A stretch of DNA of 64,000 bases from Raillietiella orientalis. Its lineage: Eukaryota. The position numbers and the translations under genes are program-made. Shown piece after piece: positions 3,145-61,113 of the stretch. Positions within the stretch are counted from its first letter, which is position 1. The number at the start of each line of letters is the position of its first letter. The notes below the pieces were generated by a model. The model was not told the origin of the DNA. It searched no databases and saw nothing but the letters and a program-made list of their open reading frames with translations. The DNA lies in contig JAYWIR010000053.1 of assembly GCA_036172245.1 (NCBI GenBank), positions 1 through 64,000 on the forward strand. Reading direction: 5' to 3'.

Positions 3145-3228
3145 CGGTCGCGTACGGACGTTCTTTTGCGTTGCTGCGCAGTATATTGGCTCTTGTGTGT
3201 TTCTGTTCTGCTGTGCTTCTGTGCTGCA

Positions 3229-25500: not shown

Positions 25501-26112
25501 ATTTTCATCGAGGAAAATGTGATCGAGCGATCTTTTCATTCCAGGTTCGCTGACCATCAAGTTGGCGGCGTGCACGGACGCGCACTTCTCGATGGAGAGC
25601 GCGCGCTCACTCGGCCGGCTCCAATCGTCGGAGAGCAGGCGGACGTTGAAGTCCCCAGCAACGAGGTGCGCCACTTGGAAACCGGAGTTGTTGAGCCAGT
25701 GGCTCTGCACCTCACCAATGAAAGCTACTCTTTCTTCGAGGTAGCGATAGCCACTCGGCGCGTAGACGTTCGTAACGACGAGATCGATGGACTCGGAACT
25801 CTTCATGACAAGCTGGCCTATCCGTCCGTCGTCATCGAAACGAACACTACGCACCGCTTCCGCCATTTTTCCTCTTACGAGGAACGCGACGCCGCACGTG
25901 TGTGCGCCGCCGCACCGCCAATGTAGCGTTCCGCCTGCGCGCTCCTCGATTTCGGCTGCCTGCTCGTCGGAGATTACGTGAATCTCCTGCAGGAGCGCGA
26001 GGTCGACGGGGCGCAGGGCGTTGGCTACTAATCGCCTCTTCTCGTCGTTCTGTAGTCCGTTCACGTTCCAACACGTTACGGACAGACGACGAGAAGACGC
26101 GATTCCCCGCAT
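22519..26112 (-). pseudogene. Left C ORF2 (endonuclease, RT, zinc finger), one frame with premature stops at 25372 and 23608
   Basis: CWNVNG, LQEIH, NVYAP, AGDFN, LDH, SDH, DLHKAFD, YADD and CVRC...PHLLLDC. Confidence 0.94.
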
Positions 26113-28034: not shown

Positions 28035-28112
28035 CGTCGTCAAAATGTACGACGCCAAGATGAAGCGGATGAAAGCACGGAGACGAGAGCGAAGAAAAAC
28101 ACGTCCGCACTC

Positions 28113-28581
28113 GATTGAAATCTCCCGCTTTCAGGTGAGGCTTCCGCCCGTTCCTGTCCGCCAGCCAGTCGCGCTTCAGGGTTTCCAGCAGCCTGGTGCG
28201 GTCGCGGTAACCCTGTTTGCCGCTGGGTCCATACACGTTTGTGACGATTAGGTCGATCGAGTCGGACCAGCAGAGAATCAGCTGATCGATCCGACCGTCG
28301 TCATCAAACCGCACGATCTTTACGGCAGCGTCGATGGCCGGCTTCACGAAGAACGCGACCCCGCAGGTGTTGCGGAGGCCGCATCGCCAATACAGCCGAC
28401 CCCCCGCGATCGTCTCGATTTCCTGGGCGTCTGCCGCGGTGATCACGTGGATCTACTGCAGCAGCGCCAGGTCGAGCTCACGCAGAGTGTCGGCTGTATC
28501 TCGCCTGTTGCCGTCGTCGCGCAGCCCGTTGACGTTCCAACAGGCCGCGCGAATCCGACGGCGACTGGCGAGCCCAGGTGT
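28113..28581 (-). pseudogene. Left D ORF2 endonuclease N-terminal half
   Basis: CWNVNG, LQ*IH, NVYGP and AGDFN. Confidence 0.9.
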
Positions 28582-40622: not shown

Positions 40623-43362
40623 CATGTTTGGGAAATAGGGGGAAGGCGGGAGGGGAATCACATTGCGCGCCGAAAGGTCCTCTAGATCCTGTTCAGAATC
40701 TTCACAAGCTGCGTCCGTTGTTCACCCAGGTGTCGCCACCTGCAAATGTTCCTCACAAAGAGGCGGGTCCAATATGTAGCCTTGCCGCTAACTTGGCGCC
40801 TTCTTCTTGTGGCGTTCCAAGCCGACACGACCCCTCTGATGCAGCAAAGAACTGCTACTGAGGCCGGTGGGGACAAGGCGTCATGCAAGAAGAGGGGCCT
40901 AAAAATTTCTTTAGGGCCACCTCCGTGAATGTTTAGGATCGTTGCAAGCCGATCCCAGAGAGGGTGGAGAGCATTGCACTCGATAAGAAGGTGGGGAAAT
41001 GTCTCTTTTTCTCCGCACCGGTCGCAATTGGCACCCACAGCCCCCCGTGTGCAGTGAGAGAGGCATGCTTTGTAGGGTAGACCCCAGTGTAAAACCGGCA
41101 ACGCCACCTCCTGCCTTTTCAAGGGGAGGGATACACTGTTCCAGGACGCTGGGGGCAACTTCATCTCCTCCGGAGATAGTCCGAGTAGCTCGCCCCAGCG
41201 TCGAATTCCGTTAGGCGGGACACTCGGCGTCGCAGCGTCCGTAAGCTGCCGAGATGTCCACGCCTCGATCTTTCGTGTCCTACCATCTATGGTGCAGGAC
41301 ACTGTCCATTTTCCCTGCTCTCTGCTGTTCCTGGCGTTTACTAAAAAGGGCAGCACTGGAGCAAGGGGGGTTATAAAGGCCCACAGAAACTGATCGTGAG
41401 ATTGCACGATTTCCTGCAGCGTCCAGCGGGCGTGCATTTTCAGGCAAGTGTTCTTTGTACCCGCCGGTACGTGGATCTTTTCCCAAGAGGGGACTGACTC
41501 GTGCAGCCATGCCGAGTGGTTCCCAGGAAGGCAGGAGATCCATTCGTTCTTCCGAGCCACGACGGCAATGCGACGCACGTGAAAGCCGCAATGCGAATTC
41601 CTGCGGTCGCGAGCCCAGAGAAACGACGAGAGTCCGCCATATCCAGAGGCACGTTGGGCCAGAAGGTGTGCTGCACGCACCAGGGCGTGTTCCACAGTTC
41701 CGCTGCAAGGACGAGCGTTCAGAACTGTAATTGTACTTCCATGCGCTCCAGCGTAAGTAGGCCAAGTCCACCGTCCTTACGTGGAGCGCACAAGTCTTTG
41801 AGTCTCACACGTGACCTCCCTTTGCCCCAAAGGACTGTCCTCAGGAGGCCCGCTGCTCTTTTTCCGACAAAATAAGGGTCGGAGCACACAAAAAGTAGGG
41901 GGCGAAGGAGTGGGGCCGCAAACGCGTTCCACACCGCGGCCCGTTCCTGCAAGTAGAACTTGCTTTCTTGGAACGGACCGATCGCCAACGCTGCCTTTTG
42001 GAGACGGTCGGACCAGGCTTCTGCTGCGCAGAAGTCCCCCTACGGAACGCCAAGGTACTTGAAGCACCTGCCCGTGGGGATCCCCAAGCGGATCCAGTCC
42101 GACCGTCCAGCCCACGCCGAGCCAACACGAGCCATGGACGACTTCGCCCTGTTCACCTCCAGGCCCGTCCCGCGGAGCAGCAACTCGAAGAAGTCCTCGA
42201 GTGCACTCGCCGGGGTGGACCCGGGAAGCAGCAGCAGAAGATCGTCTACATAGGCAGACATGGCAGGCGTGCCGGCACACGAGCTCGGCAGGGTTGCCAG
42301 AGTTACCCTGTATGCCTTCAGCACCAACTCGAAGTAGATGCTGAAGAGCAAGAGGCTCAGACTGTCACCCTGCCGGAAGCCGCGGCGTACGGGCACGCCG
42401 TACACGTGCCGGCCGCTGAAACAAACATTAATAGACGCGTTGCGCCAGCAGGAGCGCAGGTAGGACTGGATCACGGCCGGGAAACCCATGCGTTCCAGGA
42501 GCTCCAGAAGGAGATCCTGGTCGACGCAGTCGAATGCTTTGTGGAAATCGACCGCGACGGCAAGGGCTCCCGCCGAGTCCATCCCACCCTTTATCCGATC
42601 TTCTTGGTCAGAGAGGAGCGCGAGGCTTCCTTGACCATCCTGAGCAACGCGTTGTCGCAACTGCCACCATGAGCTGGCAAGGAGCAGGTTGGCCTCCATG
42701 ATTCGTCCGGGAACAGCGTAGGTCTGCTCGGGACTCACCACGGAAGCGGCCACTCGCCCCAAACGCTCAGCCCACAACTTGGCATACAACTTTGCGTCCG
42801 CATTCACTACTGTGATGGGACGCCAGTTGCGAACGTTGCGTAGGTCTCCTGACTTCGGCAGGAGACGTACTTTTGCTGACCGGAACGAAGCGGGAACTTC
42901 GTCGTGTTCGCGGATCAGCTGACTTAACATGAGCACCAGGGTGGCCAGCTTTGGCGCGAAGTAATTGTAAAACTCCGCGGGCAGGCCGTCCTCCTCTGGT
43001 GCCTTCCTTGCTATTAATTTCCTGATGGCGGAGATGATCTCTGTGATCGTAAAGGGTCCTGACAATCTGGAACAAACTTCCTCCCCGAGCGCAGGAGCAC
43101 CATTCGGCAGTAGGCACTGCGCGAAATGGCGCTCAGGTGTGAGTGGCGCGTATGAGGAGGAATAAAACTCCCGCACTATGCGGCTTTCCTGGGCTGGGCT
43201 GGAGCGTTCTTGGCCCTGATGGTCCAGCAAGCAGGCCGAGCCTGACTGCCAGGCCTGCCTCTCCGCCTCAGCCTTGAATTCAACCAGGCGACGGACGTCG
43301 GGACGCCTTGAATAACGGCGGGCCTGAAGGAACGCCCGCTCGTTCCTGACACCTTCGCCGAA
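40623..43362 (-). pseudogene. E2 ORF2, RT and zinc finger, with truncated 3' UTR
   Basis: FGEGVRNERAF, WRPITVVN, DFHKAFD, YVDD, KYLG and CDRC...PHLLIEC. Confidence 0.92.
43356..43362 (+). repeat. Triplicated target site CGCCGAA (also at 55026-55032 and 60691-60697)
   Basis: Flanks and separates D1 and D2. Host E2 reads RLPPSFG|EGVRNE across the array. Confidence 0.9.
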
Positions 43363-43467
43363 TCCCCGCTGTGTAGAGCGGACGTGCTTTTCCTGCGCTC
43401 CGCCTGCGTGGCAAAGCGAGTGTTTTTTCTTATTAAGTGATTTGTGCGTGAACATCGTCGGTGTCCG

Positions 43468-45338
43468 ATGGCAGCGTTGCCAGAGGACACCGCGATGGAA
43501 GTAGTCGTGATGGAGGCTTGTTCGTCCCCACAGCCTACTGGATCAGGGGCTTCCGCCCCGGAATCGTCCCCGGCGACGCCGAGGTCATGGAGCGCCATGG
43601 TGGCCGCGCCTAGCGTGGAAGCCATGGCCGAGATGAAAGCCTACAAGAAAGCGGGGTATAAACCCTCGCTAGTCTACAAGGTAGGCAACCTTTTCGATGG
43701 GCGAACTGCACGCGCCTTTACGAAGGCGCTGCAGGACGCCAATATTTTTGAAAAAGATCTCGACGGCCTCTGCGTCCTCAGCGGCGGGCAGCGGGTCGAG
43801 GTGGTATGCAAGGATATCACCTTGGCCCGACACCTGATCACCGACCCGCTGATCGTTGATGGTCGGAAGATCTTACCGATAACGATGGACCGCTCGGTGG
43901 TGGTCCATCTCACTGGGATCTCAAGTCGCATGACGAGGTCAGCGGTTCGAGAACAGCTACAAGAGCACGGAGAAGTGCACGCGTTTTGGCCGAAGTCCAC
44001 GATTTTCAGAGGCTACAATAGCCTTTTCGGAGGTCAAGCTGCGGCGCGTATCACGGTAAAAAAGGGTGGTGCGCTTCCCCATAAGCTGGAGGTCTGCCAA
44101 GAAGCGGTGGACCTCTGGTACGTGGGGAAACGCCAATTTTGTGGCTACTGCAATGCAGTAGGCATCTCCGAAAAAGGTGCCCGAACATTGTGTGCCACCT
44201 ATGCGGCGAAAAGGGTCACGATCGGCGCGTGTGCCCCAAGCCCCCCACCCCGGTGCCCCCTGCCGCCAAAAAGGCGCAGGGAAAACGTGGAAAGCTGGTG
44301 GAAAGACCAGCTCGCGAAAATGGCCGTTCCCAACTGCCAGCCTCCCTTCCTCCCGTACAGACGTCGGAGCAAATAGCTCCCGTGGACGCGGGAATGGAGG
44401 AGGCTTGGCAGCTGGTTCAGGCCAGAAAAGAGAAAAAAAAGATAGTGATGATAGAAGAAAATTCGGAGAAGAAAACTGCCGGCAACAAGAAAAAAGCCGC
44501 GCCGCTTTCAAAAAAAAAACTCAACGAACGCTCGGTGGCACTGGAACGCTTAGCCGTTCCTGCCGAGTCCGCCCGCGGCAATGTTCGCGGAACAGCTGAT
44601 GCGGACGCGATGAATACTCGCGTGGACGAGCCCAATCTACGTTTAGAGGGTGAGACGCGAGACTCGCGCGCCGACGGCCAGGACGCCGCGCTCGATAAAG
44701 TCGCGGAGGAGCCCGCGGCAACGTTCTCGGTCAACGATGACGCCGCGCTCGATAAGGTCGAGGAGCATCCTGGGGAAACGGTCGCCGCTGGCGAAGACGC
44801 GGCCTTCGAGAAAGCGGCGGAGGAGCTCGCAGCAACGCTCGCCGAGCGCGAAACCCCGTCGTGCAAGGGCGTACGCAGGTCGGCCCGACGAAGAAGGCCC
44901 CGCAGGTGAGTGCGACCTGTAAGCCGGAAGCGGATCCTCCTCCTCGGAGGCACCCATAGGAAGTCGGGACGCAAGTCCCAGAAACCAAGGAGGCTCCTCC
45001 CCTCCACCAGCGAGGAGTAGAAGCAGGAAGCCAGCGGTAGCGTGGGAATGCCGGAGGTTGAACTCCCACGCTCGGAAGCCGTCGAGCCGGCAACCCCCAT
45101 ATAGAAGGGTGAGCAAGAAGGCGAAGTCCTCCCTGCAGTCGCCGAGCCTGAACAGCCCGCCCCCATGGAGGAGGGCCAACAGGTAGGCGCGACCCCACCT
45201 GAGGGTGACCCGCTCGACGCGCCGGCACCGATGGAGGAGGAGGAAAAGGTGCCTTCAGTACCTGTCCCCCCTCCCCCTCTACCTAGCGTCCCGCCCCAGC
45301 AGGTGGCGGACGCCGCATCGCCGTTTTCCCTGGACTAA
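43468..45338 (+). pseudogene. D1 ORF1
   Basis: CGYCNAVG (frameshift) and CHLCGEKGHDRRVC; ends at TAACA. Confidence 0.9.
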
Positions 45339-45806
45339 CACCTGGGCTCGCCAGTCGCCGTCGGATTCGCGCGGCCTGTTGGAACGTCAACGGGCTGCGC
45401 GACGACGGCAACAGGCGAGATACAGCCGACACTCTGCGTGAGCTCGACCTGGCGCTGCTGCAGTAGATCCACGTGATCACCGCGGCAGACGCCCAGGAAA
45501 TCGAGACGATCGCGGGGGGTCGGCTGTATTGGCGATGCGGCCTCCGCAACACCTGCGGGGTCGCGTTCTTCGTGAAGCCGGCCATCGACGCTGCCGTAAA
45601 GGGCGTGCGGTTTGATGACGACGGTCGGATCGATCAGCTGATTCTCTGCTGGTCCGACTCGATCGACCTAATCGTCACAAACGTGTATGGCCCTAGCGGC
45701 AAACAGGGTTACCGCGACCGCACCAGGCTGCTGGAAACCCTGAAGCGCGACTGGCTGGCGGACAGGAACGGGCGGAAGGCTCACCTGATAGCGGGAGATT
45801 TCAATC
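45338..45806 (+). pseudogene. D1 ORF2 endonuclease N-terminal half
   Basis: CWNVNG, LQ*IH, NVYGP and AGDFN. Confidence 0.9.
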
Positions 45807-45884
45807 GAGTGCGGACGTGTTTTTCTTCGCTCTCGTCTCCGTGCTTTCATCCGCTTCATCTTTGCGTCGTACATTTTGACGACG

Positions 45885-47780
45885 ATGTCGACCCAACTTG
45901 AAGCTACTGAAGTTGGAGGAACAGCATCCGGATCTGCAATCGCGGAAGCGACGGCCGCCTCCACTTCGTCTTTCTCGCCAATGGAGAGGAGTTTTGCTGA
46001 CGTTGCTGCCACAGCAGCCGTCAAAGGGAAACCTCTCGACGAGTCGGAGTTGCGGGCATACGTAGCCCAAGGCTATAGACCTGCTCTCCGATATAAGGTG
46101 AGTGGCTTTCTTTCTGCGCGCGACGGGAATCAGTTCAACGATGAACTGACCCGTGTTGGCGTGCGGGAGGAGGACCTTCTCGCCATTATGCCCGTAAAAG
46201 ACATGGGCTATTTCAAGGTGCGTTGCAAAGACGCTGCACTTGTGCAGCGCTTGCTGCGCACCCCGCTTTCGATCCGTGCCCAGAACGTCTTCCCGGCCGC
46301 CATGGACGACTCATTTGTGGTTGAGATTTCCGACATCGAGTCGGAAATCTCCGATACTGATATTCGGAACGCGTTGGCGAAATTCGCCACGGTCCATGCG
46401 CTGTGGAGGGTGCGTAGCAACCTCAAGGACTTCCCGTCCATACACAGCGGAGTCGCTGGAGTCCGGCTTACAATGCCGGACCGCCGTCTGCTGCCCACCA
46501 AACTACAGTTGAAAGACACGGTCGTTCACCACGTTCAATGCGGGAAGGAGGGGCATTGTTTGGATAAATGCCCCTCTGGAAAATGCCGTTATTGCAAACT
46601 ATCCGGGCACCAATTGAAAAATTGCCCGGATCTTTTGCGAAAAAAGGCAGCCGCGGAGCTCCATTTTAAAAAACAAAGCGCGGATAAGAAGAAAAAATCT
46701 GCGAAAAACCTGGAGACCCCACGGCAGAAATTCGGTAAAAACGCGAGGCGGAATGTCGCCCCAAAGCAGCAGGAAACCTCGCACGCGAAGCCCTGCGCAC
46801 CCCCTCTCGCGGCAGGGGAGCCGCAAAAGAAAGAGTGCAGGGAATCCGGGGCAATGGTAAGTCCCCCTAGGCGCAATAGCTGTCCTTCCCAAGCACGCCC
46901 GGCTCTCTCGGAGTTCGAGCAACCGGCGGGGACGCCAATGGACAACGGCGGTAAGGACACTTCCAGTACCGTCAGATCCATTCCTTCACCTCCTGCAGTG
47001 GCTGAGAAACCCAAATCGGGTAAGAAGGGTTGTGCCCTGTCGACTTCGAAAGTCGGCAAAAAAAAATCCGCGTCGCGATCCAACACCGCGAAAGCGGAGA
47101 AAAATCTTACGCGGTCGCAGTCGGAGAGCAAGCTCTCGACTGGCGCGAATGCGATGCCAACGAAGGGATTAAACGCCCTTCCGAAAGCAGCGTCCATGAG
47201 GAGCGTGTCGGAGCCATCGAAATTGCTCCAGTCCAAAGACGCGGATGGCTTAAAAGATGGCCATGGAGCGCAATCTCCATTTACGGCGCCACGCGGAGTG
47301 AGGAACCGTAATAAAATAAAGAAGACTTCAGCAAAGGTCCCTCGTGCAACTGCGCGTGAGCACGCTGAAAACGCGCGCGCCGGGAAAGCAGCCGTCACCA
47401 AAAGCGATGCTCTGGTGACGGAAAACGAAAACAGGACCGCTGTCAATCCAGCAGAACCTGTCACTGCTTCGCGGAAGGCCGAAATCCGATCGAACATGCG
47501 CCGGTCGGACTCCGAAATGGATGCCGTTCCGATCACCGAGACGAGGACAACTCGTTCGAAAGCGTGTGCGCGCCTATCAAAAGTAGGCAGCGAGGCAACG
47601 CTCGCCGCGAAGCAGCGCGAAGTCTCCACGAAACCCGACGGGGTTAAGCCTGGCGTGGAGGAATTGCATGCATGCAGCACGACGGAGGACGGTGGCAACC
47701 GTCATCTCCAGCCAATCGTGCTGCTCGCCGTCTGCTCGCCGGATAAAGCGAGCAAAAAGCCGCCACCTTCCCAGCAGTAA
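45885..47780 (+). CDS. Right C ORF1, open but with an in-frame deletion at the first zinc knuckle
   Basis: VVHHVQCGKEGHC here versus VVHQWFVGKVETCEQCGKEEHC in left C. Confidence 0.8.
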   Translation: MSTQLEATEVGGTASGSAIAEATAASTSSFSPMERSFADVAATAAVKGKPLDESELRAYVAQGYRPALRYKVSGFLSARDGNQFNDELTRVGVREEDLLAIMPVKDMGYFKVRCKDAALVQRLLRTPLSIRAQNVFPAAMDDSFVVEISDIESEISDTDIRNALAKFATVHALWRVRSNLKDFPSIHSGVAGVRLTMPDRRLLPTKLQLKDTVVHHVQCGKEGHCLDKCPSGKCRYCKLSGHQLKNCPDLLRKKAAAELHFKKQSADKKKKSAKNLETPRQKFGKNARRNVAPKQQETSHAKPCAPPLAAGEPQKKECRESGAMVSPPRRNSCPSQARPALSEFEQPAGTPMDNGGKDTSSTVRSIPSPPAVAEKPKSGKKGCALSTSKVGKKKSASRSNTAKAEKNLTRSQSESKLSTGANAMPTKGLNALPKAASMRSVSEPSKLLQSKDADGLKDGHGAQSPFTAPRGVRNRNKIKKTSAKVPRATAREHAENARAGKAAVTKSDALVTENENRTAVNPAEPVTASRKAEIRSNMRRSDSEMDAVPITETRTTRSKACARLSKVGSEATLAAKQREVSTKPDGVKPGVEELHACSTTEDGGNRHLQPIVLLAVCSPDKASKKPPPSQQ

Positions 47781-50700
47781 TGCGGGGAATCGCGTCTTCT
47801 CGTCGTCTGTCCGTAACGTGTTGGAACGTGAACGGACTACAGAACGACGAGAAGGGGCGATTAGTAGCCAACGCCCTGCGCCCCTTCGACCTCGCGCTCC
47901 TGCAGGAGATTCACGTAATCTCCGACGTGAAGGCAGCCGAAATCGAGGAGCGCGCAGGGGAAACGCTACATTGGCGGTGCGGCGGCGCACACACGTGCGG
48001 CGTCGCGTTCATCGTAAGATGAAAAATGGCGGAAGCGGTGCGTAGTGTTCGTTTCGATGACGACGAACGGATAGGCCAGCATGTCATCAAGTGGTCCGAG
48101 TCTATCGATCTCATCGTTACGAACGTCTACGCGCCGTGTGGCTCTCGCTACCTCGAAGAAAGAGTAGCTTTCTTTGGTGAGGTGCAGAGCCACTGGCTCA
48201 ACAACTCCGGCTTCCAAGTGGCGCACCTCGTCGCTGGGGACTTCAACGTCCGCCTGCTCTCCGACGATTGGAGCCGCCCGAGGGCGCGCGCGCTGCCCAT
48301 CGAGATGTGCGCGTCCGTGCACGCCGCCAACTTGATGGTCAGCGAACCTGGAATGGAAAGATCGCTCGATCACGTTTTCCTCGATGAAAACCTGCATTCG
48401 CGTGTGGGTAGGAGAGGAAGATTGTTGACTGAGCTTTCTGACCACCACAGGTTGGAGTTTGAGATCCTTCCGCCAGGCAGGTGGCCTCCGTTGCAAAGCT
48501 GGAGGATGCAGGCGGATTGGCTTAGCCAACCGGAGGCTGCGGAGCATCTACGTGGATACCTCCGGGGCTTTGCCATTCAAGAACTTGCGGACTGGGACGA
48601 TCTCAAAAGATCTGTCCGCGAGTTCTGTTGCCAATTCCCCTTGCACCGGCTTCCACGCGGTTTCGGAGAGGGCGTGGCCAACAGTAGAGACTTTCTGCAG
48701 GCTCGCACGTTTTCGAGACGCGCGGATGTCCGGTGTCTCGCAGAGTACAAGGCGAGGGCCGAGCGCCAGGTCTGGCAGTCCGGAGCATCATGCCTGTTGG
48801 ACGACAAGGGCCAGGAATGTTCGGCCCCAGCCGAAGTACGCCGCATTTGAGACGCTACTACTCCTCGCTCTACGCGGAATCCCCGACGGAGGATATTCTT
48901 TCTGAGATACTCCTGTCTCAGGATGCTCGTGTTGTCGGCGAGGAGGAACGCGAACGTCTCGACGAGCCCTTCGGGGCGCATGAATTTTCGTCCGCCATCG
49001 CTGGGCTGAAGAGACGCAAGGCGCCAGGCGAGGATGGGCTCCCTGCAGAGTTTTATCAGTGCTTTGCAGTGGAGCTCATTCCCTTGATGCTGAAACTCGC
49101 GACGCTGATGAGTGAATCCGGGAATGTCCCTGATTCCTTCCGCTCAGCGAAGGTGCGTCTCCTGCCGAAAGGCGGAGACTTGCGACAACTTAACAACTGG
49201 CGTCCGATCACCTTGGTGAACTCGGACGTCAAGTTGTTTTTTAAGCTGTGGGTCGCGCGGTTAGGAAGTATCACGGAATCTGTGGTGAGCCCGGAACAAA
49301 CCTACGCGGATCCGGGACGATCCATGGAGGCGAACATCCTTTTCGCGCGTACATGGATGCAGCCGCAGGAAGTTGTGGCGCAGCAAAGCCAGGCTGCTGC
49401 GAAAGTCACTGCCGCAGGCAAAAAGAACAGGCGCCGACGGCAGGAGGGAACGACAGGTGCCTTGGCGGTCGCGGTCGATCTCCACAAGGCGTTCGACTGC
49501 GTAAACCAGAAGCTGCTTTTGGAGCTTATGGAACGCCTTGGGTTCCCGGCGCAACTCCTGCTGTATTTGCGCGCGTGCTGGCGCCACGCGCTAACCAGCA
49601 TCACTTTTAGCGGCTGCCGCGTGTATGGTATTCCCGTTCGTAGGGGCATCCGACAGGGCGACAGCTTAAGCCCGTTGCTCTTCAGCATCTTCTTTGAGTT
49701 GGTGCTAAGAGCATACAGGCTGACGCTGTCTCACTTGCCAAGCTCCTGCCCGGGAACGCCTGCCGTGGCCGCCTACGCTGATGACCTGCTTCTTCTGCTC
49801 CCCATGTCCATCCCGGCGTCCAGTGTCGAGGATTTCTTCGACCTGATTCGTCGGGGAGCGGGCGTGAGCGTGAACAGAGAGAAGAGCGTGGTCGTTCCTG
49901 TGAGTACGTCGTGGGAGGGGCAGTCCCACTGGATCCGCCTGGGGATCCCCACGGGCGGGTACTTTAAGTACCTTGGCGTTCCGTTGGGCGATTTCGGCGC
50001 AGCCGAAGCGTGGGCGGACTGTCTTCAGAAAGCAGAGTTGGCCATCAGCCCGTTCTTTAACGGCAAGTTCACCTTGCAGGAACGGGCGACTATTTGGAAC
50101 ACCTTTGTGGCCCCCCTCCTCCGTCCCCTGTTTTTTGTTTTGGACCCCCCCTATGCGGCAAAACAGCGGGCTAAGCGCCTGCTCAGAAGAGCTCTCTGGG
50201 GTCCGGCGAGATCCAGGATCCGCCTTAAAGATTTGTCAGCTCGGCGTCGGGATGCTGGTTTGGGTATCCTGATAATGGAGCGAACCGGACTGCAGGTGCA
50301 GTTCCGACTGCTGGCACTGTGTGCCCAGCTATGGAGATCCCCCCTGTGTGTGCCAGCTCGCATTCTCCTGCGGAGATGCGCCGGCAGCGGAGGATTTCTC
50401 TCTCTTTTGCCGGGCACTCAATACAGGAAGCGGGGTTTCGGGTTTCCATTGCGGCAGTTGACCGCACTTCTGGAAGCACACTCTTGGATCTCCTGCCGCC
50501 CAATGAACTTTGAAGCTTGGCGGCAGGAGTCTGTTGAATCCTGGGCGGCGTTCCAAGGAATACGCCCTGAAGATCTTCGCCCCCTGCGCCAATTTTTTCC
50601 ACTATCCTTGGAAGAAGTACTGCAGGAAGAGGTGAAGTTTTCTACCCTGACTGCCCCGCCTCTTGCCGCAGCGCTGTCTGCCCTCAGGGCAAGAAACCAC

Positions 50701-51372
50701 AGTTACCAACCGGCGAGGTGGGAGGTTTCCTGCACGATAGCGGGAAGAACCAAACTTCTTGGCACCTGGAAGACAAGTGAGTTGGCGGACGCCGCCACTC
50801 CTCGTATTACTGCAAAGGGACTCCTCCGGTGGGCAGAAGAACTTGCTGTCACCCCCGAAGAACTTGTAGTCCCTCCACAGTGTATGGACAGTTCGCTGCT
50901 CCCCCTTGCTTGGAAACAAGCCGTGCTGCTTTCCGTTCACTGGGGTTTTCAGTGCAACGAGCGTTGGCATCGTGACTCCGGGGGACTTGCGTCTGCGAAC
51001 TGCGTTCGGTGCGGATCGACGGAGTCGATTCCGCACCTACTTCTGGACTGCGGTGTCCTACAAGGACTGTGACGTAGGCTGGCAACAGCACTATTGCATC
51101 CCGTGGACACCGCAAGAGACTTGCTGCGACGATTCTTCAGGCCGAGCGGGCTTTCACTAAGCGCAAGGATTCCAACCATCGGTTGCATACGCGCGATAGT
51201 CTCCGTCCGCCAGGCGTTGGTAATCAACGGACAGCACCAAGAGGTAATCAGCAAAGCATCCTTCTACATGGGAGCATCCGCTAGATGGCCTCATTTGACA
51301 GAGGAGACAAAGAGGAATCTCGCCGCAATACACCGCCGGTTTACACACCCTCATCAGCGGCCAACCCCGTGA
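47780..51372 (+). pseudogene. Right C ORF2
   Basis: All endonuclease, RT and finger motifs; stops at 48020 and 51070, frameshift near 48848. Confidence 0.94.
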
Positions 51373-51685
51373 TCATTGACCTACCCTCCATAAACTAAAT
51401 TTGTATTTTCTTTTTACACCCGCGTCCCCATAGGCTCCGGAACATTTTAGGTGCTCATTGTATAAATCCCCGTGAGTACGGAGCCTAACCAAACACCCGT
51501 TACCCTTCCCTACAGTTTTTGATTTTTGTTTGGTTCCATTCATTCCCCCCACGCTGCGAGCGGTTTGTTTTCCAAGCCTGCGTGCCGGTAATTTTTCTAT
51601 GTTCTCGGTCGTTCTCTTGGTTGGGGACATTGTCCCTGACCAGTTTATTATTATTAATAAACGCCCCGGCGTGACCGGGTGATAA

Positions 51686-54600
51686 ATTGCAATCTCCGCC
51701 TGCTAACAGGTGAGCCAGAAACACAAGTGAAAGCGATGAACGAGTTGTGCGCCGCCATGCGTGCGCGCAACTTCTTCGCTGGTGAGAGGGAAATGGTCCG
51801 CAGCATCGACAACGTCTTCCTCGACGCTGACCTGTGTTCACGGGTCGACAAACGGGGGAGGGTTGCGTCAACGTTGTCGGACCATTCCCGGTTAATTTGC
51901 GAGCTGCGGCCTCGCGACAAAGGACCGCCATCCAGGAATTGGCGTCTGCCGGGGGACTGGACGCGACTCTCAGGTGCGAAGGAACACCTTCGCGAATACC
52001 TTAGAGGCGTCACGATCCGGAATCTCCAGCACTGGGACCTTTTTAAGGAATCGGTCCGCGAGTTCTGTGAGCAGTTCCCCCTGGATCGCCTGCCCCCCGG
52101 ATTCGGCGAGGGTGCTCGAACCATCGGGCCTATTTACATGCTCGTAGGTACGAGAGAACCCCTAATTTCCGTCGCCTGGCCGAGTACCGCGCCGGGGCCG
52201 AACGCCAAGCCTCGCAATCCGGGTCGGCCAGCTTGCTGGACGACCAAGGCAGGGAATGTTCGTCCCCGCCGTCGGTATGGCAACTCGTGCGGAGTTCTTA
52301 TTCCTCCCTTTACGCCAGGGAGTCCCCGGATCGAAACGCCTCTCGACGCTTGCTTCCGGATGGCACCCCGGCAATAGGGGAGGAGGAGTTGAAAAGCCTC
52401 GACGAGCCTTTTACCACCGGCGAAATTCTCAACGGTATCAAAAGGCTCAAGAGGCGTAAAGCTCCAGGGGAAGACGGCTTGCCCGCGGAGTTCTTTCAGA
52501 GCTTCGCGGAAGAGCTGGCACCCCTGCTGCTTAAGCTGACAAGGCTGATCCGAGACGAAGGCGATGTTCACGCCTTGTTTCGGTCAGCCAGAGTGAGGCT
52601 CTTTCCGAAAGGGGGAGACCTTAGGAATTTGAACAACTGGCGTCCGATCACGATCTTGAATACGGTCGCTAAGTTGATAGCAGGGCTATAAGCTTCGCGT
52701 CTGGGGCAGGTGGCAGAATCCGTAATTAGCCCGGAGCAGACTTATGGTGTTCCCGGGCGAAGTATGGATGCCAACCTCTTCTTCGCAAGCACATGGGTGC
52801 ACCTGCAGAGAAGAGAAAAGAAAGGGATAGGGAAAGTCGGCAAGCCCACATTGGGGCCACCAGCCGGGCTGGGAAGGGACCCCCGAGCAGGGAAGGGGGC
52901 CCTAGCGCTCGCAGTCGATCTCCTCAAGGCGTTCGACTGTGTAGACCAGGAACTCCTCTTGGAGCTCGTGGGTCGCATGGGCTTTCCACCCTCCCTGATT
53001 TCCTACCTGCGCTCTTGCTGGCGGAATGCGATGATTACCGTCTGTTTCAGTGGACAGAAGGTGTATGGCGTGCCGGTGCGGCGGGGCATAAGGCAGGGCG
53101 AAAGCCTCAGCCCCCTGCTCTTTAGCACCTACTTTGAGTTGGTGCTGAGAGCGTACAGGGTGACTTTGGCCCCCTTGCCGAGCTCGTGCCCCCCACGCCC
53201 GCCGTAGCAGCGTACGCCGACGATCTTCTGCTCTTGTTGCCAATGTCCACCCCGGCGAAGGCGGTCGGAGACTCCTTCGATCTGCTAATCCGCGGGACCG
53301 GACTGCAGGTTAACAGGGCGAAGTCGTCGGTTGTGCCAATAGGTGCGGCGTGGGCAGGGCAGCAGGACTGGGTCCGTGTGGGGATATCCTCGGCGAGGTG
53401 CTTCAAGTACCTTGGTGTGCCGTTCAGAAACTACTGCCCCGCGGAAGCGTGGTCCAGCTGCCTCCAAAAAGTCCAGACGGCTCTGGGCCCGTTCCTGGAA
53501 GGCAAGTTTCACTTGCCGGAACGGGCCGCGGTTTGGAACGCCTTCGCGGCCCCCATCCTCCGCCCTTTGCTTTTTGTTTGCCCTCCCACCGTGGAATCCA
53601 AGAATAGGACGAAGGACCTCCTCCGTATCGCCCTTTGGGGCAAGGGGAGGCCCCGAGTCCCACTGAAGAACTTGTGCGCTCCGCGTCGGCACGGCGGTCT
53701 CTGCCTCCTGACGCTGGAGCGCGTGGAGAAGCAGCTGCGGTGGCGAACCCTCGCCATCGCAGCGAAGATGTGGTGCACCCCTTGGTGCACTCCAGCCCGC
53801 CTCCTGGCCAGCCGTGTGTCCCGGTGCGATGGACTCGCGTCTTTTCTTCTCAGCCGTGGCCGGAAGATGCGAAGATGCGGCCTACTGCTCGAGCTCATGG
53901 CAACATTAGCCAAGGAGAACAGCTGGATGGTTTGCTGCCCCGCCAACTCCCCCGCCTGGCTGGAGGAAAATATTGGAACGCGGGCAGTGGTTAACCAGAC
54001 AATCCACAAGACGTGGAATCGTCTCCGTTGCAGCCCCTACGCCCGCTGCACGCTGCGGAATCTCCTGGAGAGTCCAGCAAGATGCACTTGGGCAGTGACG
54101 ACCTGTCTAGCTACGGCGCTGCCCTTCCTGGAGAGGGCACTTCACAGCAGCCGGACGCCAAGGTGGCAAGTCTCCTGCTGCATCGAGGGACGCGAAAAGT
54201 TGATCAGCGGCTGGACAACAGAAGAACTGGCAGACGCCACGACCCCGAGCGTCCAGCCGCGAGGACTAAGAAGATGGGGCGAGCTGCTGGCCATCCCTAT
54301 AGATGTGCTGAAGTGGCCCCCGCTTCTTCAGGAATCCAGGATCCTGCCCCTCAAGTGGAAAGAGTCGGCGTTGCTGTTGTTGCATTGGGGTTTACCCTGC
54401 AACGCACGCCGCTCTCACTGGACAAGAGGAGTTGTGGATCCTGCGTTTGTCAGGTGCGGAGAGCGGGAATCGCTCTCCCACCTTATTGTGGACTGTGCTG
54501 CCCTTCGTCCCCTTTGGGAACGGTTTGGGATGATCCTCGGTCTCCCAACGAGCAGTTCCCCTAGAGACGTTCTTCGGCTCCTCTTCGTGAAGGACGCCCT

Positions 54601-54820
54601 GCAGCCAGCCGCAGTTCTTGCAGCCTTGTGCTGCGTCCGAGGCATCGTGGCGGCATGGAGCGACACCAACAAGGAAGGAGTTGGTCAACACGCGAGGGAT
54701 GTCATCCCATATGCCCAACGCTTCTTGCGAAGAGCTGCCGGATGGCCCCAACTGGGGAATATGCAGACTGACCTCGAGGTCTTCGTTCGACGGATGGGCC
54801 CTCTCGACAGCGACCAGTGA
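51686..54820 (+). pseudogene. D1 ORF2 remainder
   Basis: SDH, WRPITILN, DLLKAFD, YADD and KYLG, with stops and frameshifts. Confidence 0.93.
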
Positions 54821-55045
54821 TCCCTTCCCTGCCCTCCAACTTCTTTTTGTCTGTTTCTTTTTATTTTACTTTTTGTCTTATGCCCATCCCCCTTCGCTGT
54901 CGGGGAGTGCCACGCCGGGCTGCGTCCCGGTGTCCCGACAGGTCCTGTGTTTAGGGCCGTGGTGGGGCCTTGTACCACGCATGTAAAGTTTAATAATAAA
55001 CGCCCCGGGCGTACCCGGGTGATAACGCCGAATCCCTTGGTGAGT

Positions 55046-55052
55046 GGACGTG
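55046..55052 (+). promoter_or_regulatory. DPE-like 5' motif GGACGTG (representative copy)
   Basis: Recurs close to the 5' end at 3156, 16335, 28100, 30534, 32740, 37899, 43380 and 45813 (single-base variants at 3156 and 32740). Function is inferred. Confidence 0.6.
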
Positions 55053-55131
55053 TGTTTCCTTCGCTCCCGAGTGAGTCGACAGGAAGCGGTTTTTTCTATT
55101 GTTGTTTGGTGTGGAACATCGTTGGTGTCCG

Positions 55132-56889
55132 ATGCCAGCGATGCCTGAGGACACCACGATGGAGGTAGGTGTGGGGGAGGCTTGCCCACCCCCACAGCCT
55201 ACCGAATCAGGGGCGTCCGCCCCGGAATCGCCCTCGCCGCTTAAGGCGAGGAGCTGGAGCGCCATGGTGGCCGCGCCGAGCGCGGAAACCATGGCCGAGA
55301 TGGCGTCCTACCTGGCAGCTGGGTACAAGCCCAGCTTGGTTTACCAGGTAGGCAATCTCTTTGACGGGCGAACTGCACGCGCTTTTTCGAAAGCGCTGCA
55401 GAACGCCAACGTGTTGGAAAAGGACCTTGACGGTCTATCCGTGCTCAGCGGGGGTGAGCGCGTCGAGGTTGTCTGCAAGGACATCACCTTGGCGCAAAGC
55501 TTGATAACCACCCCGCTGAACGTGGACGGACGCAAGATCCTACCAGTCACGATGGACCGCTCCGTAGTGGTCCATCTGACAGGGATCACCAGCCGCAAGA
55601 CGCGGTCTACGGTTGGTGATCAGTTAATAAAGTACGGGGATGTTCACGCGCTTTGGCCAAAGGCCACAATCTTCGATGGCTACGATAGCCTTTTCGGAGG
55701 GCAGGCCGCCGCGCGCGTGACGGTGAAGGAGAGTGGGCTTCCCCACAAACTAGAGGTCAATGGCGAAGTCGTAGACCTCTGGTACGTGGGGAAACCCCGC
55801 ATTTGAGGCTACTGCAATGCAGTAGGACACTTGCGCAAGCGGTGCCCGAACGTTGTGTGCCACTTATGCGGGGAGAAGGGCCACGTACGCCGCGTATGCC
55901 CTAAACGCCCCACTCCGGTGCCGTCTGCTGCAAAGAAAGCACAGGCAAAATGCGGTAAACTGGTCGAAAGACCAAAAAGAGATACTGGCCGGCAGCAGCC
56001 GCTGGCCCCTGTTCCTCCCACACAGGCGTCGGAAGAACAACCCTCCGAAGACGCGGGAGTCCAAGACGACTGGCAGTTGGTCAACGCCAGGAAGGAGAGA
56101 AAGGTGCACTTCGCGGAACCCGCGAAAGCGGTAAAAAAGACAGCCGGCAAGGCGAACAAACCTGGACCGCCCTCTAAGACCATGCAGGAGTGTACGGTAG
56201 CACTGGAGCGCATAGCCGTTCCCTAGATTGCCACCCGGGGCGACGAGCCTTCCCTCGCCGTTTCCGCCGCGCCCGCGGTTCGCGACGGCGAACAATCTGT
56301 TTACACAGAGGGTGAGCCGCGCGAAATAGCGACGGTCGAAGCCGAGGACGCCGCGTTCGCTCAGGCGGCGGAGGAGCTCGCGGCCACGCTGGCGGAGCGT
56401 GAGAACCCCTCGCGCAAGGCCGTGCGAAGGCCGGCTCCCGCGAAAAAGGCCCCCACAGGTCAGTCGGACCTGGCGGCCGGAAGTGCATCCTCCTCCTCGG
56501 AGGTACCCCCCAGGAAGTCGGGACGCAAGTCCCAGAAACCCAGGAGGCGCCTCCCCTCCACCAGCGAGGAGGAGAAGTAGGAAGCTAGCGGTAGCGTGGG
56601 AATCCCGGAGGGGGAACTCCCATTCTCGGAAGTCGTCGAGCCGGCCACCCCCATGGAGGAGGGTGAGCAGGGGGGCGAAGTCCTCCCTGCAGTCGCCGAG
56701 CCTGAACAGCCCGCCCCCATGGAGGAGGGCCAACAGGTAGGCGCGACCCCACCTAAGGGTGACCCGCTCGACGCGCCGTTACCCATGGAGGAGGGGGACC
56801 AGGTGCACGCAGCGCCTGACCCTCCTCCTCCACCTAGCGTCCCACCCCAACATGTGGCGGACGCCGCATCGCCATCTTCCCAGGAATAA
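55132..56889 (+). pseudogene. D2 ORF1
   Basis: Stop at 55804 in the first knuckle; CHLCGEKGHVRRVC; frameshifted tail with three PMEEG repeats. Confidence 0.9.
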
Positions 56890-59800
56890 CACCTGGGCTC
56901 GCCAGTCGCAGTCGGATTCGCGCCGCCTGTTGGAACGTCAACGGGCTGCGCGACGACGGTAACAGGCGAGATACGGCCGATAACCTGCGTGAGCTCGACC
57001 TGGCCCTGCTGCAGGAGATCCACGTGGTCACCGCGGCAGACGCCCAGAAAATCGAGGCGATCGCGGGGGGTCGGCTGTATTGGCGGTGCGGCCTCCGCAA
57101 CACCTGCGGGGTCGCGTTCTTAGTGAAGCCGGCCATCGACGCGGCCGTGAAGGGCGTGCGCTTCGATGACGACGGTCGGGACGGTCAGCTGATTCTCAGC
57201 TGGTCCGACTCGATCGAATTTATCGTCACGAATGTGTACGCCCCCAGCGGTAAACAGGGATACAGCGACCGTACCAGGCTGCTGGATTCCCTGAAGCGCG
57301 ACTGGCTGGCGGACACGAACGAGCGGAAGGCTCACCTGATAGCGGGAGATTTCAATCTCCGTCTGCTAACAGGTGAGCCAGAAACACAAGAGAACGCGAT
57401 GAACAAGTTGTGCGCCGCCATGCGTGCGCGCAACTTGTTCGCGGGAGAGAGGGGAATGGTCCGCAGCATCGACCACGTCTTCCTCGACGCTGACCTGTGT
57501 TCACGGGTCGGCAAACGGGGGAGGGTTGCGTCGACGTTGTCGGACCATTCCCGGTTAATTTTCGAGATGCGGTCTCGTGACAAGGGACCTCCATCCAGGG
57601 ATTGGCGTCTGCCGGGGGACTGGACGCGACTCTCAGGTGCGAAGGAATACCTTCGCGAATACCCGAGAGGTGTCACGCTCCGGAATCTCCAGGACTGGGA
57701 CCTTTTTAAAAAATCGGTCCGCGAGTTCTGTGAGCAGTTCCCCCTGGATCCCCTGCCCCTTGGATTCGGCGAGGGTGCTCGCAACCATCGGGCCTATTTA
57801 CAGGCTCGCAGGTACGACAGAACCCCTAATGTCCGTCGCCAGGCCGAGTACCGCCCCGGGGCCGAAAGCCAAGCCTGGCAATCCGGGTCGGCCAGCTTGC
57901 TGGACGACCAGAGCCGGGAATGTTCGTCTTTGGCGTCGGTACGGCATCTCTTGCGGAGTTTTTATTCCTCCCTTTACGCCCAGGAGCCCCCGGATCGAAA
58001 CGCCTCTCGACGCTTGCTTCCGGATGGCACCCCGGCAATAGGGGAGGAGGAGATGGAAAGCCTCGACGAGCCTTTTACCACCGGCGAAATTCTCGCCGGT
58101 ATCAAAAGGCTCAAGAGGCGTAAAGCTCCAGGGGAAGACGGCTTGCCCGCGGAGTTCTTTCAGAGCTTCGCGGAAGAGCTGGCACCCCTGCTGCTTAAGT
58201 TGATCAGGCTGATCCGAGAGGAAGGCGATGTTCCCGCCTCGTTTCGGTCAGCCAGAGTGAGGCTCCTTCCGAAAGGGGGAGACCTCAGGGATTTAAAGCA
58301 CTGGCGTCCGATCACAATCGTGAATACGGACGCCAAGTTGATCGCAGGGCTATGGGCTTCGCGTCTGGGGCAGGTGGCAGAATCCGTAATTAGCCCGGAG
58401 CAGACTTATGCTGTTTCCGGGCGAAGTATGGATGCCAACCTCTTCTTCGCAAGCACATGGGTGCACCTGCAGAGAAGAGAGAAGAAAGGGATAGGGAAAG
58501 TCGGCAACCCCACATTGGGGCCGCCAGCCGGGCTGGGAAGGGACTACCGGGCGGGGAAGGGGGCCCTAGCGCTCGCAGTCGATCTCCACAAGGCTTTCGA
58601 CTGTGTAGACCAGGAACTTCTCTTGGAGCTCCTGGGTCGCATGGGCTATCCCCCCTCCCTGATTTCCTACCTGCGCTCTTGCAGGCGGAATGCGATAATT
58701 ACCGTCTCTTTCAGCGGTCAAAAGGTGTATGGCGTGCCGGTGCGGCGGGGCTTAAGGCAGGGAGATAGCCTCAGCCCCCTGCTCTTCAGCACCTACTTTG
58801 AGTTGGTGCTAAGAGCGTACAGGGTGACTTTGGCCCCATTGCCGAGCTCGTGCCCCGGCACGCCCGCCGTAGCACCGTACGCCGACGATCTTCTGCTTTT
58901 GTTGCCAATGTCCACCCCGGCAAAGGCGGTCGGAGACTTCTTCGATCTGCTAAGCCGCGGGACCGGACTGCAGGTTAACAGGGCGAAGTTCTCGGTTGTG
59001 CCAATAGGTGCGGCGTGGGCAGGGCAGCAGGACTGGGTCCGTCTGGGGATCCCCACGGCGAGGTGCTTCAAGTACCTTGGTGTGCCGTTGGGGCACTACT
59101 CCCCTGCGGAAGCGTGGTCCAGCTGCCTCCAAAAAGTCGAGACGGCGATCGGCCCGTTCCTGGAAGGCAAGTTTCACTTGCCGGTACGGGCCGCGGTTTG
59201 GAACGCCTTCGCGGCCCCCATCCTCCGCCCCTTGCTTTTTGTTTGCCCCTAAACCGTGGAATCCAAGAAGAGGACGAAGGACCTCCTCCGTATCGCCCTT
59301 TGGGGCAAGGGGAGGCCCCGAGTCCCACTGAAGGACTTGTGCGCTCCGCGTCGGGACGGCGGTCTTGGCCTCCTGACGCTGGAGCGCGTTAAGAAGCAGC
59401 TGCGGAGCCGAACCCTCGCCATCGTAGCGAAGATGTGGAGCACCCCTTGGTGCACTCCAGCCCGCCTCCTGGCCAGCCGTGTGTCCCGGTGCGATGGACT
59501 CGCGTGTTTTCTTCTCAGCCGTGGCCGGAAGATGCGAAGATGCGGCCTACTGCTCGGGCGCATGGCAACATTGGCCAAGGAGAACAGCTGGGTGGTTTGC
59601 TGACCCGCCAACTCCCTCGCCTGGCTGGAGGAAAATATTGGAACGTGGGCAGTGGTTAACCAGACAAGCCACGAGACGTGGAATCGTCTTCGTTGCAGCC
59701 CCTACGCCCGCTGCACGCTGCGGAATATCCTGGAGAGTCCAGCAAGATGCATGTGGGCAGAGACGACCTGCCTAGCTACGGCCCTGCCCTCCCTGAAGAG

Positions 59801-60485
59801 GGCACTTCACAGCAGCCGGACGCCAAGGTGGCAAGTCTCCTGCTGCATCGAGGGACGCGAGAAGTTGATCAGCGGCTGGACAACAGGAGAACTGTCCGAC
59901 GCCACGACCCCGAGAGTCCAGCCGCGAGGATTAGTAAGATGGGGCGAGCTGCTCGCCATCCCCAGGGATGAGCTGAAGTGGCGCCCGGTGATGAAGGAAT
60001 CCAGGATCCTGTCCCTCAAGTGGCAAGAGTCGGCGTTGCTTTTGTTGCACTGGGGTCTACTCTGCAACGCGCGCCGCTTCCACTGGACGAGGGGAGCTGT
60101 GGATCCAGCGTGTGCCAGGTGAGGTGAGCGGGAGTCGCTTCCCCACCTTATTGTTGATTGTGCTGCCCTCCGACCCCTTTGGGAACGGTTCCGGACGACC
60201 CTCGGGCTCCCTACGGGCAGGACCCCCAGAGACGTTCTTCGGCCTTTCTTCGTGAAGGACGCACTGCAGCCAGCCGCAGCCATCGCAGCCTTGTGCTGCG
60301 TCCGTGGCATCGTGGGGGCATGGAGCGACGCCAACAACGAAGGAGTGGGTCCACAGGCGAGGGATATCATCCCGTATGCCAAACGCTTCTTGCGAAGATC
60401 TGTCGGATGGCCCCAACTGGGGAATATGCAGACTGACCTCGAGGGCTTCGTTCGAGGAATGAGCCCTCCCTACAGCGACCAGTGA
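56889..60485 (+). pseudogene. D2 ORF2, open from ACA at 56889 to 59252 (complete endonuclease and RT), then in-frame stops
   Basis: TPGLASRSRIRAACWNVNG, LQEIH, AGDFN, SIDH, SDH, DLHKAFD, YADD and KYLG. Confidence 0.94.
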
Positions 60486-60659
60486 TCCCTTCCCTGCCCT
60501 CCAACTTCTTTTTGTTTGTTTCTTTTTATTTTCCTTTTTGACTTATCCATATCTTCCTTCGCTGTCGGGGAGTGCCACGCCGGGCTGCGTCCCGGTGTCC
60601 CGACAGGTCCTGTGTTTACGGCCGTGGTGGGGCCTTGTACCACGCATGTAAAGTTTATT

Positions 60660-60690
60660 AATAAACGCCCCGGGCGTACCCGGGTGATAA
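60660..60690 (+). terminator. 3' end signal: AATAAA + CCCGGG-CGTA-CCCGGG hairpin + TGATAA (representative copy)
   Basis: Equivalent signals at 764-793, 18399, 18832-18862, 22206-22235, 37002, 38996-39025, 51656, 54995 and 61114. Confidence 0.7.
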
Positions 60691-61113
60691 CGCCGAAGCT
60701 CGGCGGAAGACGTTCCATGGGAAACTAGTCGCAAAACTCGCTGACTGAGCACTTCATTTCGTCCCAGTCCGCGAACGTATGAAGCTGGAATCCTCGCAGG
60801 AAGGAGCGTAGATGTTCCGCCGCTGCTGCGAGGCGCAACCAATCCCCTGGCAGGCGCCATGTTTTCAGGGGAGGGCCCTTATTGCACCGATGTAACTCGA
60901 GCACGAGCCGTGGATGGTCGGACAGTTCTGCCGGGAGCGTTCCTCGAGTTTCCACCCGCGTGGACAGGTGGTTGTCGAGGAACATGTGGTCGATGTTCCG
61001 ATCTCTCCCGGCATCACCGGCCAACAAGTTGCGCGCATTCATTGCTCCGCACAACTGGTTGACCAGCTGTGCTCGTCGGTTGGGCGCACCTGCCAGCAGG
61101 CGGAGATTGAAAT
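60691..61113 (-). pseudogene. E2 endonuclease C-terminal half (FN to RLPPSFG)
   Basis: FNLRLL, NIDH, SDH and DWDEMK; joins 43362 across the D array. Confidence 0.9.

Follow-up and report, generated by a model that had tools for sequence, protein, structure and literature searches.

The known targets of site-specific long interspersed nuclear elements (LINEs) are ribosomal DNA (rDNA), small nuclear RNA genes, microsatellites, telomeres and a few DNA transposons. Among LINEs with an apurinic/apyrimidinic endonuclease (APE), fixed targets are described, in the part of the literature drawn on here, for the R1 and Tx1 clades (PMC4640811), and members of the Tx1 clade are reported from DNA transposons (Tx1 in the piggyBac-type Tx1D, Tx1-Mar in Mariner-N4_AMi and Tx1-9_AMi in Harbinger; PMC4494074). 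R1 tandems are attributed to double insertion, with a 33-nt target duplication between the copies, and the same source documents this signature for elements other than R1 (bioRxiv 10.1101/158386). Zepp and ZeppL, which are L1 LINEs of green algae, are described as forming nested clusters by inserting into existing copies and as GC-rich relative to the genome (PMC3446292, PMC8226300), and Cnl1 of Cryptococcus, an element without long terminal repeats (non-LTR), as forming subtelomeric arrays of its own copies at preferred places (bioRxiv 10.1101/2021.08.11.455996). Here we analyse a 64-kb stretch of the genome of Raillietiella orientalis (assembly GCA_036172245.1, contig JAYWIR010000053.1, positions 1-64,000; hereafter the window), in which a LINE family, D, probably lands repeatedly at one fixed site within other LINEs by sequence-specific insertion, and in which a second family, G, appears to have a fixed site of its own. 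All D and G events come from this window.

The window consists nearly entirely of nested non-LTR retrotransposons, with a GC content of 54-64%. A tblastn map using the second open reading frame (ORF2) of D as a ruler gave about a dozen related copies with 40-65% protein identity, including D, G, E1, E2, J and H and the shortened copies A, C, K, M and N (only D, E2 and J are names from before this analysis); A, C, K and M are 5'-truncated in this map. The likeness to Zepp lies in the nested-cluster habit alone, i.e. a GC-rich nest of apparently L1-like elements. In the sources cited above, Zepp arrays are mostly 5'-truncated 3' ends and no fixed motif is given, whereas here full-length copies are found at base-exact sites, in fixed orientation and across families. 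D resembles Cnl1 in building arrays of its own copies, but Cnl1 is subtelomeric, and the account we draw on describes no coding-motif target in other LINE families.

An earlier note on this DNA had described the arrangement CGCCGAA-D1-CGCCGAA-D2-CGCCGAA inside E2, and the junctions at 43356-60697 read exactly so. The 3' part of the host E2 (40685..43355, minus strand) carries ORF2 from the linker between endonuclease and reverse transcriptase (RT) (..EGVRNERAF) via the RT to the C-terminal domain (tblastn places amino acids (aa) 309-803 of D2 ORF2 at 41884-43365 and the C-terminal part at 40685-42270). It is followed by the first copy of the target duplication, CGCCGAA (43356..43362; TTCGGCG in host sense, within codons for F-G-E), and by the 5' part of D1 (43363..45806, plus strand), with a leader, an ORF1 that contains a frameshift, and ORF2 aa 1-173, as far as the GDFN motif. 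After a nested G element comes the 3' part of D1 (51686..55025, plus strand), which runs from ORF2 aa 171 to the 3' end and terminates in ..CCCGGGTGATAA. The second CGCCGAA (55026..55032) provides the sole bases separating the 3' end of D1 from the 5' end of D2 (55033..60690, plus strand), an uninterrupted copy of 5,658 bp with a leader, an ORF1 with in-frame stops and an ORF2 with APE and RT. The third CGCCGAA (60691..60697) adjoins the 5' fragment of E2 (60698..61113, minus strand; ORF2 aa 171-308). On the plus strand, with slashes marking junctions, the left side reads ..CACCTT / CGCCGAA / TCCCCGCTG..D1..GGTGATAA / CGCCGAA, and the right side CGCCGAA / TCCCTTGGTG..D2..GGTGATAA / CGCCGAA / GCTCGGCGG.., the last being the E2 flank. 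Joined, the outer flanks give minus-strand E2, whose sense reads ..FPMERLPPS-F-G-E-GVRNERAF...

A third copy, left D (18832..30557, minus strand; 11,726 bp, containing its own nested G), lies antisense in the host J, and the same site was indeed found around it, at the homologous place. The 5' fragment of J (18714..18824, plus strand; ORF2 aa 273-308, ..FPLNRLPPG) is cut upstream by another element, and its 3' part (30565..32695, plus strand) comprises the linker ..EGLRNDRAY, the RT and part of the C-terminal domain, so that the plus strand of J across the site reads ..FPLNRLPPG-F-G-E-GLRNDRAY... The duplication copies are TTCGACG (18825..18831; one transition), which adjoins the 3' end of left D, and TTCGGCG (30558..30564), which adjoins its 5' end. 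All three D copies are antisense to their host and break the F-G-E codons of the endonuclease-RT linker.

The two hosts are clearly different sequences. As had been claimed, they differ at many third codon positions: over the 111 nt upstream of the site there are 24 differences (9/1/14 at codon positions one, two and three) and 78.4% identity, and over 292 aligned nt downstream the identity is 69.5%, with differences starting less than 10 nt from each junction. Left D and D1 agree at 95.5% both over their first 111 nt and over their last 111 nt. Because the hosts diverge right at the junctions while the D ends match at 95.5%, a duplication that carried the flanks along is excluded. By a rough estimate, the chance that a second insertion hits the homologous base in the same orientation in a 5.7-kb host is about 1 in 11,000, and recurrence at a homologous base was seen for two families (D and G), in addition to the D tandem.

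The 7-mer alone is not enriched in the window (17 matches vs 16.55 expected; 52/100 shuffles reach 17); the signal is positional, since the same break nucleotide and the same relative orientation recur in two hosts. The perfect 11-mer TTCGGCGAAGG (TTCGGCG/AAGG) is present twice and occupied in both instances, and none of the seven variant homologous linker sites is occupied. These empty sites are those of the three D copies themselves (TTCGGCG/AGGG, TTCGGCGAGGG; 57765-57775 in D2), two G copies (TTCGGAG/AGGG, TTCGGAGAGGG), E1 (TTTGGGA/CCGG, TTTGGGACCGG) and H (TTTGGTG/AAAG, TTTGGTGAAAG). The unoccupied TTCGGCG that the earlier note had pointed out in the linker of D itself is therefore confirmed (57765-57771 in D2), and its proposal of fixed-site, antisense, sequence-specific targeting of the linker by D is upheld within the window, with the choice of site following the sequence.

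The earlier note had the structure of the D1/D2 array right, and had missed both the G elements nested in D1 and left D and the site specificity of G. G1 (45807..51685, plus strand) is a complete 5,879-bp element in D1, in sense orientation, which starts with GAGTGCGGACG and ends with GGTGATAA; its duplication copies, on the plus strand, are ATTTCAATC (45798-45806) and ATTGCAATC (51686-51694; one change). G-left (22206-28112) in left D is flanked by ATTTCAATC at 28113-28121 and 22197-22205. G3 (61114..64000, minus strand) is a 3' part with about 95% identity to G1, inserted in sense orientation at the GDFN site of E2; it leaves the window, its 5' junction lies beyond, and it contributes a 3' junction only, in which ATTTCAATC at 61105-61113 (the upstream end of E2) comes right after ..GGTGATAA of G3. 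Each time, G interrupts the codons for the catalytic endonuclease motif GDFN, and the duplication is the 9-bp ATTTCAATC. The 3' junction of G is base-identical in D1, left D and E2 (..GGTGATAA/ATTTCAATC), and the 5' junction reads ATTTCAATC/GAGTGCGG in D1 and left D. Since E2 and D share only 52% protein identity at the GDFN stretch, G entered E2 in an event separate from the one or two in D. Judging from these junctions, G appears to be a second site-specific family, with another target, the opposite relative orientation and a 9-bp duplication. The endonucleases of the two families are about 40-45% identical over the compared stretch.

All three occupied G sites read ATTTCAATC/TCCGCCTG. With up to three mismatches allowed, the 18-mer target turns up 7 times (0.06 expected); G sits in the three closest matches and in no others. 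Empty sites were found in D2 (57349-57365; ATTTCAATC/TCCGTCTG), in G itself and in N (both ACTTCAACG), in E1 (ATTTCAACG) and in H (ACTTTAACC).

The three D copies are related to one another in an uneven manner. D1 spans 11,663 bp, or 5,775 bp after subtracting G1 and one copy of its duplication. Compared with D1, D2 is 66.7% identical over the first 111 nt and 76.4% over D2 positions 10-1070, has no alignment at 1070-1300, and is 88.0% identical over 1300-2325 and 92.5% over 2317-5658. Given 67-76% identity at the 5' end, up to 92.5% in the rest and one shared 7-mer, D1 and D2 inserted separately, in line with the earlier note, and did not arise by tandem duplication; they are members of different subfamilies. 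Left D and D1 match unevenly (93-99% identity per 500-nt bin), and their identity falls in steps at the element borders (98.3% in the 5' part of D, 96.3% in the nested G and 94.4% in the 3' part of D). Over the 3' part, almost equal distances separate the three D copies (90, 89 and 157 unique differences); over the 5' part, left D hardly differs from D1, and D2 stands 12-24% apart. This pattern hints at patchy gene conversion, or else at exchange of the 5' half of D as a module. Either G struck two D copies separately, or a D+G composite moved as a unit and was then patchily converted.

We also observed that D1 (43441-44909) and left D (28960-29835) apparently share a frameshift in the first zinc knuckle of ORF1, where they read ..QCSRHLRKRCP.. 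and D2 reads in frame ..CNAVGHLRKRCP... A common source of D1 and left D, with ORF1 already broken and ORF2 split by G, would have required mobilisation in trans. At their 5' ends, the D copies carry 9-13 extra bases (43363-43375, 55033-55041 and 30545-30557) before a start motif, GAGYGGACGTG, with which G begins directly. These extra bases differ between D1/left D and D2, yet all start with TCCC; this start, which in host sense corresponds to the Gly codon before TTC, may be a relic of target sequence carried at the 5' end.

ORF2 of D2 (56838-59252) is open over 804 aa and then has three in-frame stops. It matches the Pfam families Exo_endo_phos (8e-14, aa 32-237) and RVT_1 (5.2e-21, aa 573-750), both above the cut-offs. 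A protein atlas gave APE plus RT and nothing further. Its best solved relative is human L1 ORF2p (1.9e-48), with R2 proteins far behind (5e-14 at best); for the endonuclease, L1-EN was matched (4.8e-07). At E up to 0.01, 21 PDB sequences were matched, none of them an endonuclease chain of R1Bm or TRAS1. CCHC knuckles in ORF1 and a C-terminal CxxC...H...C motif were recognised by eye, with Pfam matches below the cut-offs (best zf-CCHC_2 18.3 bits vs 27 for ORF1; zf-RVT 17.4 and 19.1 bits vs 27.5 for the C-terminus). The elements have the features of APE-type LINEs (APE then RT in ORF2, target duplications, a defined 3' end, no terminal repeats and 5' truncation), the RT and endonuclease matches indicate kinship with the L1/Tx1 group, and insertion at one fixed sequence of a repeated target, a Tx1-type trait, was seen within this one window. 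A protein search with D2 ORF2 gave 13 proteins, one with 71% identity (a fragment that starts from aa 354 of the D2 frame and so falls short of the linker site) and the others with 27% or less; the nearest named protein is a Xenopus tropicalis RT (25% identity).

D and G end exactly in ..GGTGATAA, with the target directly after and without the poly(A) of an L1-type A-rich tail. Their last 8 bases are identical; in the related families the end consists of 4-5 A. A 3' module common to all related families is made up of AATAAACG, a short hairpin and a short A-rich end (at about 750 in A, minus strand; 18430 in C, plus; 37035 in H, plus; 38990 in K, minus; and 51685, 55025, 60690 and 61114), and the module motif AATAAACGCCCC has 21 matches at up to 2 mismatches vs 4.23 expected. 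The module reads AATAAA(C/T)G followed by a GC hairpin, for which RNAalifold gives a 5-pair stem, ACGCC/GGCGT, with one compensatory change (to ATGCC/GGCAT in K); a 6-bp CCCGGG hairpin guessed by eye was dropped in favour of this consensus. The precise ends and the common terminal module fit RTs that recognise their own 3' end. We note that the AATAAA, about 25 nt before the 3' end, resembles a polyadenylation signal.

These structures likely arose by sequence-specific target-primed reverse transcription. The D endonuclease would nick the sense strand of the host at TTCGGCG^AAGG, in the F-G-E codons of the linker of E-like elements, and the freed 3'-OH would prime reverse transcription at the exact 3' end of the D RNA (..GGUGAUAA, no poly(A)), which is preceded by the conserved AAUAAACG-hairpin module; a second nick 7 bp off on the other strand would give the 7-bp duplication. 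A full-length antisense D would follow, because the sense-strand nick primes at the 3' end of the D RNA and the second nick is 7 bp away. Each D insertion would regenerate the 7-mer on both sides, and the copy at the 5' side of D would retain the host AAGG half-site, through which a second D could enter to yield D-7mer-D, so that the tandem likely arose by double insertion with one target duplication between the copies, by analogy with R1. Since the empty sites differ just past the nick and only the 5'-side 7-mer keeps the half-site, new copies would be added at the 5' side; D1 would then be the younger of the two, and arrays would lengthen at that side. G, inserting in sense orientation, would target ATTTCAATC/TCCGCCTG (GDFN), with a first nick on the host antisense strand at GATTGAAAT^CTCCC and a second nick 9 bp away, and has struck D and E2. 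The nick positions proposed for both families are read off the 3' junctions. Own copies would be spared through target differences, as they carry synonymous or near-synonymous changes (e.g. GAG in D for GAA in the target, or ACTTCAACG in G).

Several observations weigh against a site-specific origin of these insertions, or limit how far it can be taken. The sample is small (for D, three events and two host sites; for G, two or three events) and D and G copies are known from one window alone; every copy is dead, so that neither activity nor endonuclease specificity can be read from an intact gene. The steps of 98.3, 96.3 and 94.4% between left D and D1 are left unexplained by a history in which a composite was copied once, and with D+G composites 94-98% alike, D1 and left D may share a single G event. 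D2 contains the exact 9-mer ATTTCAATC, which is empty (it has one mismatch 4 nt downstream), and G occupancy is therefore not saturating. The contigs of the sole public sequencing run that contains the sequence are a few hundred bases long, and none of those listed spans the tandem junction or any other. The 7 bases, lastly, could derive partly from a read-through RNA tail rather than from a staggered cut, with the same final structure.

This last point leads to the alternative that deserves most attention, namely that RNA-DNA pairing mainly sets the specificity, with the CGCCGAA tail of a read-through D transcript annealing to the nicked target, as described for R1/R2-type elements, and the duplication being partly templated. 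R1-type elements depend on such a tail to insert precisely. The predicted final structure is identical, and the 9-13 nt before GAGYGGACGTG, which differ between D1/left D and D2 and both begin with TCCC, would suit a variant in which transcripts perhaps start in upstream target bases (D begins TCC(C), the Gly codon in host sense). As D and G are alike in their last 8 bases and yet use different sites, something beyond the RNA 3' end must differ. As a pairing of 7 bases is too short to single out a unique site among the 17 CGCCGAA matches in 64 kb, and as the same RNA terminus (..GGUGAUAA) goes with different targets in D and G, which points to the proteins, we consider this explanation unlikely and infer that the endonuclease sets the specificity, to which pairing between target and read-through transcripts may contribute. 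Less probable still is a single ancestral insertion of D into an E-like element, followed by duplication or retrotransposition of the composite E(D) to give J and E2, with the D parts homogenised by conversion while the flanks diverged. Left D and D1 do form inverted repeats 12.6 kb apart, and their patchy identity suggests some conversion; the drop in identity from 95.5% to values of 78% and 69.5%, however, coincides exactly with the element ends, a conversion tract is unlikely to halt at the last base of D on both sides, and neither the single 7-mer shared by D2 and D1 nor the independent same-site G junction in E2 (52% protein identity to D) is explained.

An assembly artefact, in which the tandem D1-D2 and/or the inverted left D result from collapsed or mis-joined near-identical repeats, would be favoured by the extreme repetitiveness of the region (copies 92-98% alike) and by the short contigs of the run mentioned above. 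We regard it as very improbable: the junctions are local (less than 40 nt), with clean element ends and a duplication, and the same junction logic recurs with other flanks (J vs E2) and with variants (D1 vs D2), unlike what a mis-join would give. The faintest prospect is that of endonuclease-independent or hotspot capture, with the linker and GDFN sites being fragile or structurally exposed so that any LINE cDNA is captured there. Nothing favours it directly; nested clusters such as those of Zepp are reported to target existing copies, with no defined motif quoted in the source (PMC8226300). The linker is used by D alone and the GDFN site by G alone, each with a fixed orientation and a fixed 7 or 9 bp, and the junctions of other families are located elsewhere; with those junctions lying near ORF2 aa 273, 283, 469 and 584, the two sites are family-specific and not general hotspots or weak points. 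A third fixed site (H at host ORF2 ~aa 283 and M in J at aa 273) was considered as well and rejected, as the two breaks are about 30 nt apart and so are different sites.

Sequence-specific insertion of D has counterparts in both clades with fixed targets, as far as the cited sources describe them. Like Tx1, D is APE-type and inserts at a fixed site in another mobile element; it is L1/Tx1-like by its best solved relative. Unlike Tx1, which enters DNA transposons, D and G enter related LINEs, at conserved coding motifs of the LINE enzyme itself (the F-G-E linker and the catalytic GDFN); two families use two sites with one family striking the other, and there is no poly(A) tail. D shares with R1 the APE-type endonuclease, a strict site and the D1-7mer-D2 logic; the R1 target, in contrast, is insect 28S rDNA, and the duplication here is 7 bp. 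A limited literature search, which is no proof of absence, gave no case of two LINE families targeting two conserved coding motifs of related LINEs with one parasitising the other.

Searches beyond the window added little. The exact D/G 3' terminus had 0 matches among contigs from metagenomes, genomes and viruses. Guided by protein, a scan of metagenome contigs recovered 5 loci with 27-41% identity only (too distant for use), and protein searches with the open frames crossing the 3' and 5' junctions of D gave no matches. One sequencing run contains 29% of the words of D2 and is possibly from the source sample; no RNA run was listed. One contig of the run (a match on a side of 30 nt) tracks D2 to 57357, the last base of the 9-bp target of G, and then jumps; it may come from a D copy carrying G, perhaps even from left D or D1.

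Decay has reached all related copies, with 74 in-frame stops across the LINE reading frames (TAA 30, TAG 24, TGA 20), and on the evidence of their domains they appear to be degenerate L1-like LINEs with APE and RT. A variant code with TGA as Cys, considered since 3 stops in D2 lie at Cys positions, was rejected given this spread of stops over three codons and many residues. RIP-like hypermutation (RIP, repeat-induced point mutation) was rejected too, as no more than about half of the changes that separate left D from D1 are transitions (16/42, 105/217 and 96/187). In 6 of the 74 stops a TAA stands at a conserved Trp position (2997, 14544, 21201, 31142, 36278 and 52689), which needs two G-to-A changes per codon, and the stops at 21201 and 52689 are at the equivalent position in left D and D1; with transitions at about half, these stops give no clear hypermutation signature.

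Element B (4770-9775, minus strand) represents a separate LINE family with about 25% identity to D ORF2. Its ORF2 is stop-free over 1,088 aa, with APE and RT (RVT_1 1.7e-31), its ORF1 zinc knuckle passes the Pfam cut-off, and B is far less decayed than its neighbours. K (39252-40621, minus strand), truncated at about ORF2 aa 747, abuts the 3' untranslated end of E2 (E2 40685-42270, minus strand) in head-to-tail order. It is 85-97% identical to the matching part of E2, the two stretches being spaced 1,432 bp apart, and E2 is without the usual 3' terminal module; the arrangement is either a partial tandem duplication or the insertion of a close relative.

We tentatively propose, as an idea that may well prove wrong, a network of related LINE families in which each endonuclease has evolved to cut conserved enzyme codons of its rivals (F-G-E for D; GDFN for G, which strikes D), while own copies escape through synonymous changes. 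If this is true, LINE-on-LINE homing would disable competitors, and it would use a harmless landing pad that is kept conserved by selection on the host element. Homing of a LINE to a conserved coding motif of other LINEs, with a second family doing likewise to the first, would then be a new class of target and a natural case of competition between transposon families via sequence-specific nicking. The first bases of D (TCC.., the Gly codon in host sense) may help to re-create the site for the next insertion, and two short, distinct targets cut by endonucleases that are about 40-45% identical would offer a compact system for studying how APE-type specificity changes. Homing alone would also build self-growing nested and tandem LINE islands, as found at some algal centromeres, and would thereby provide a mechanism for the self-assembly of such islands that bears on the centromeric clusters of the Zepp type as well.

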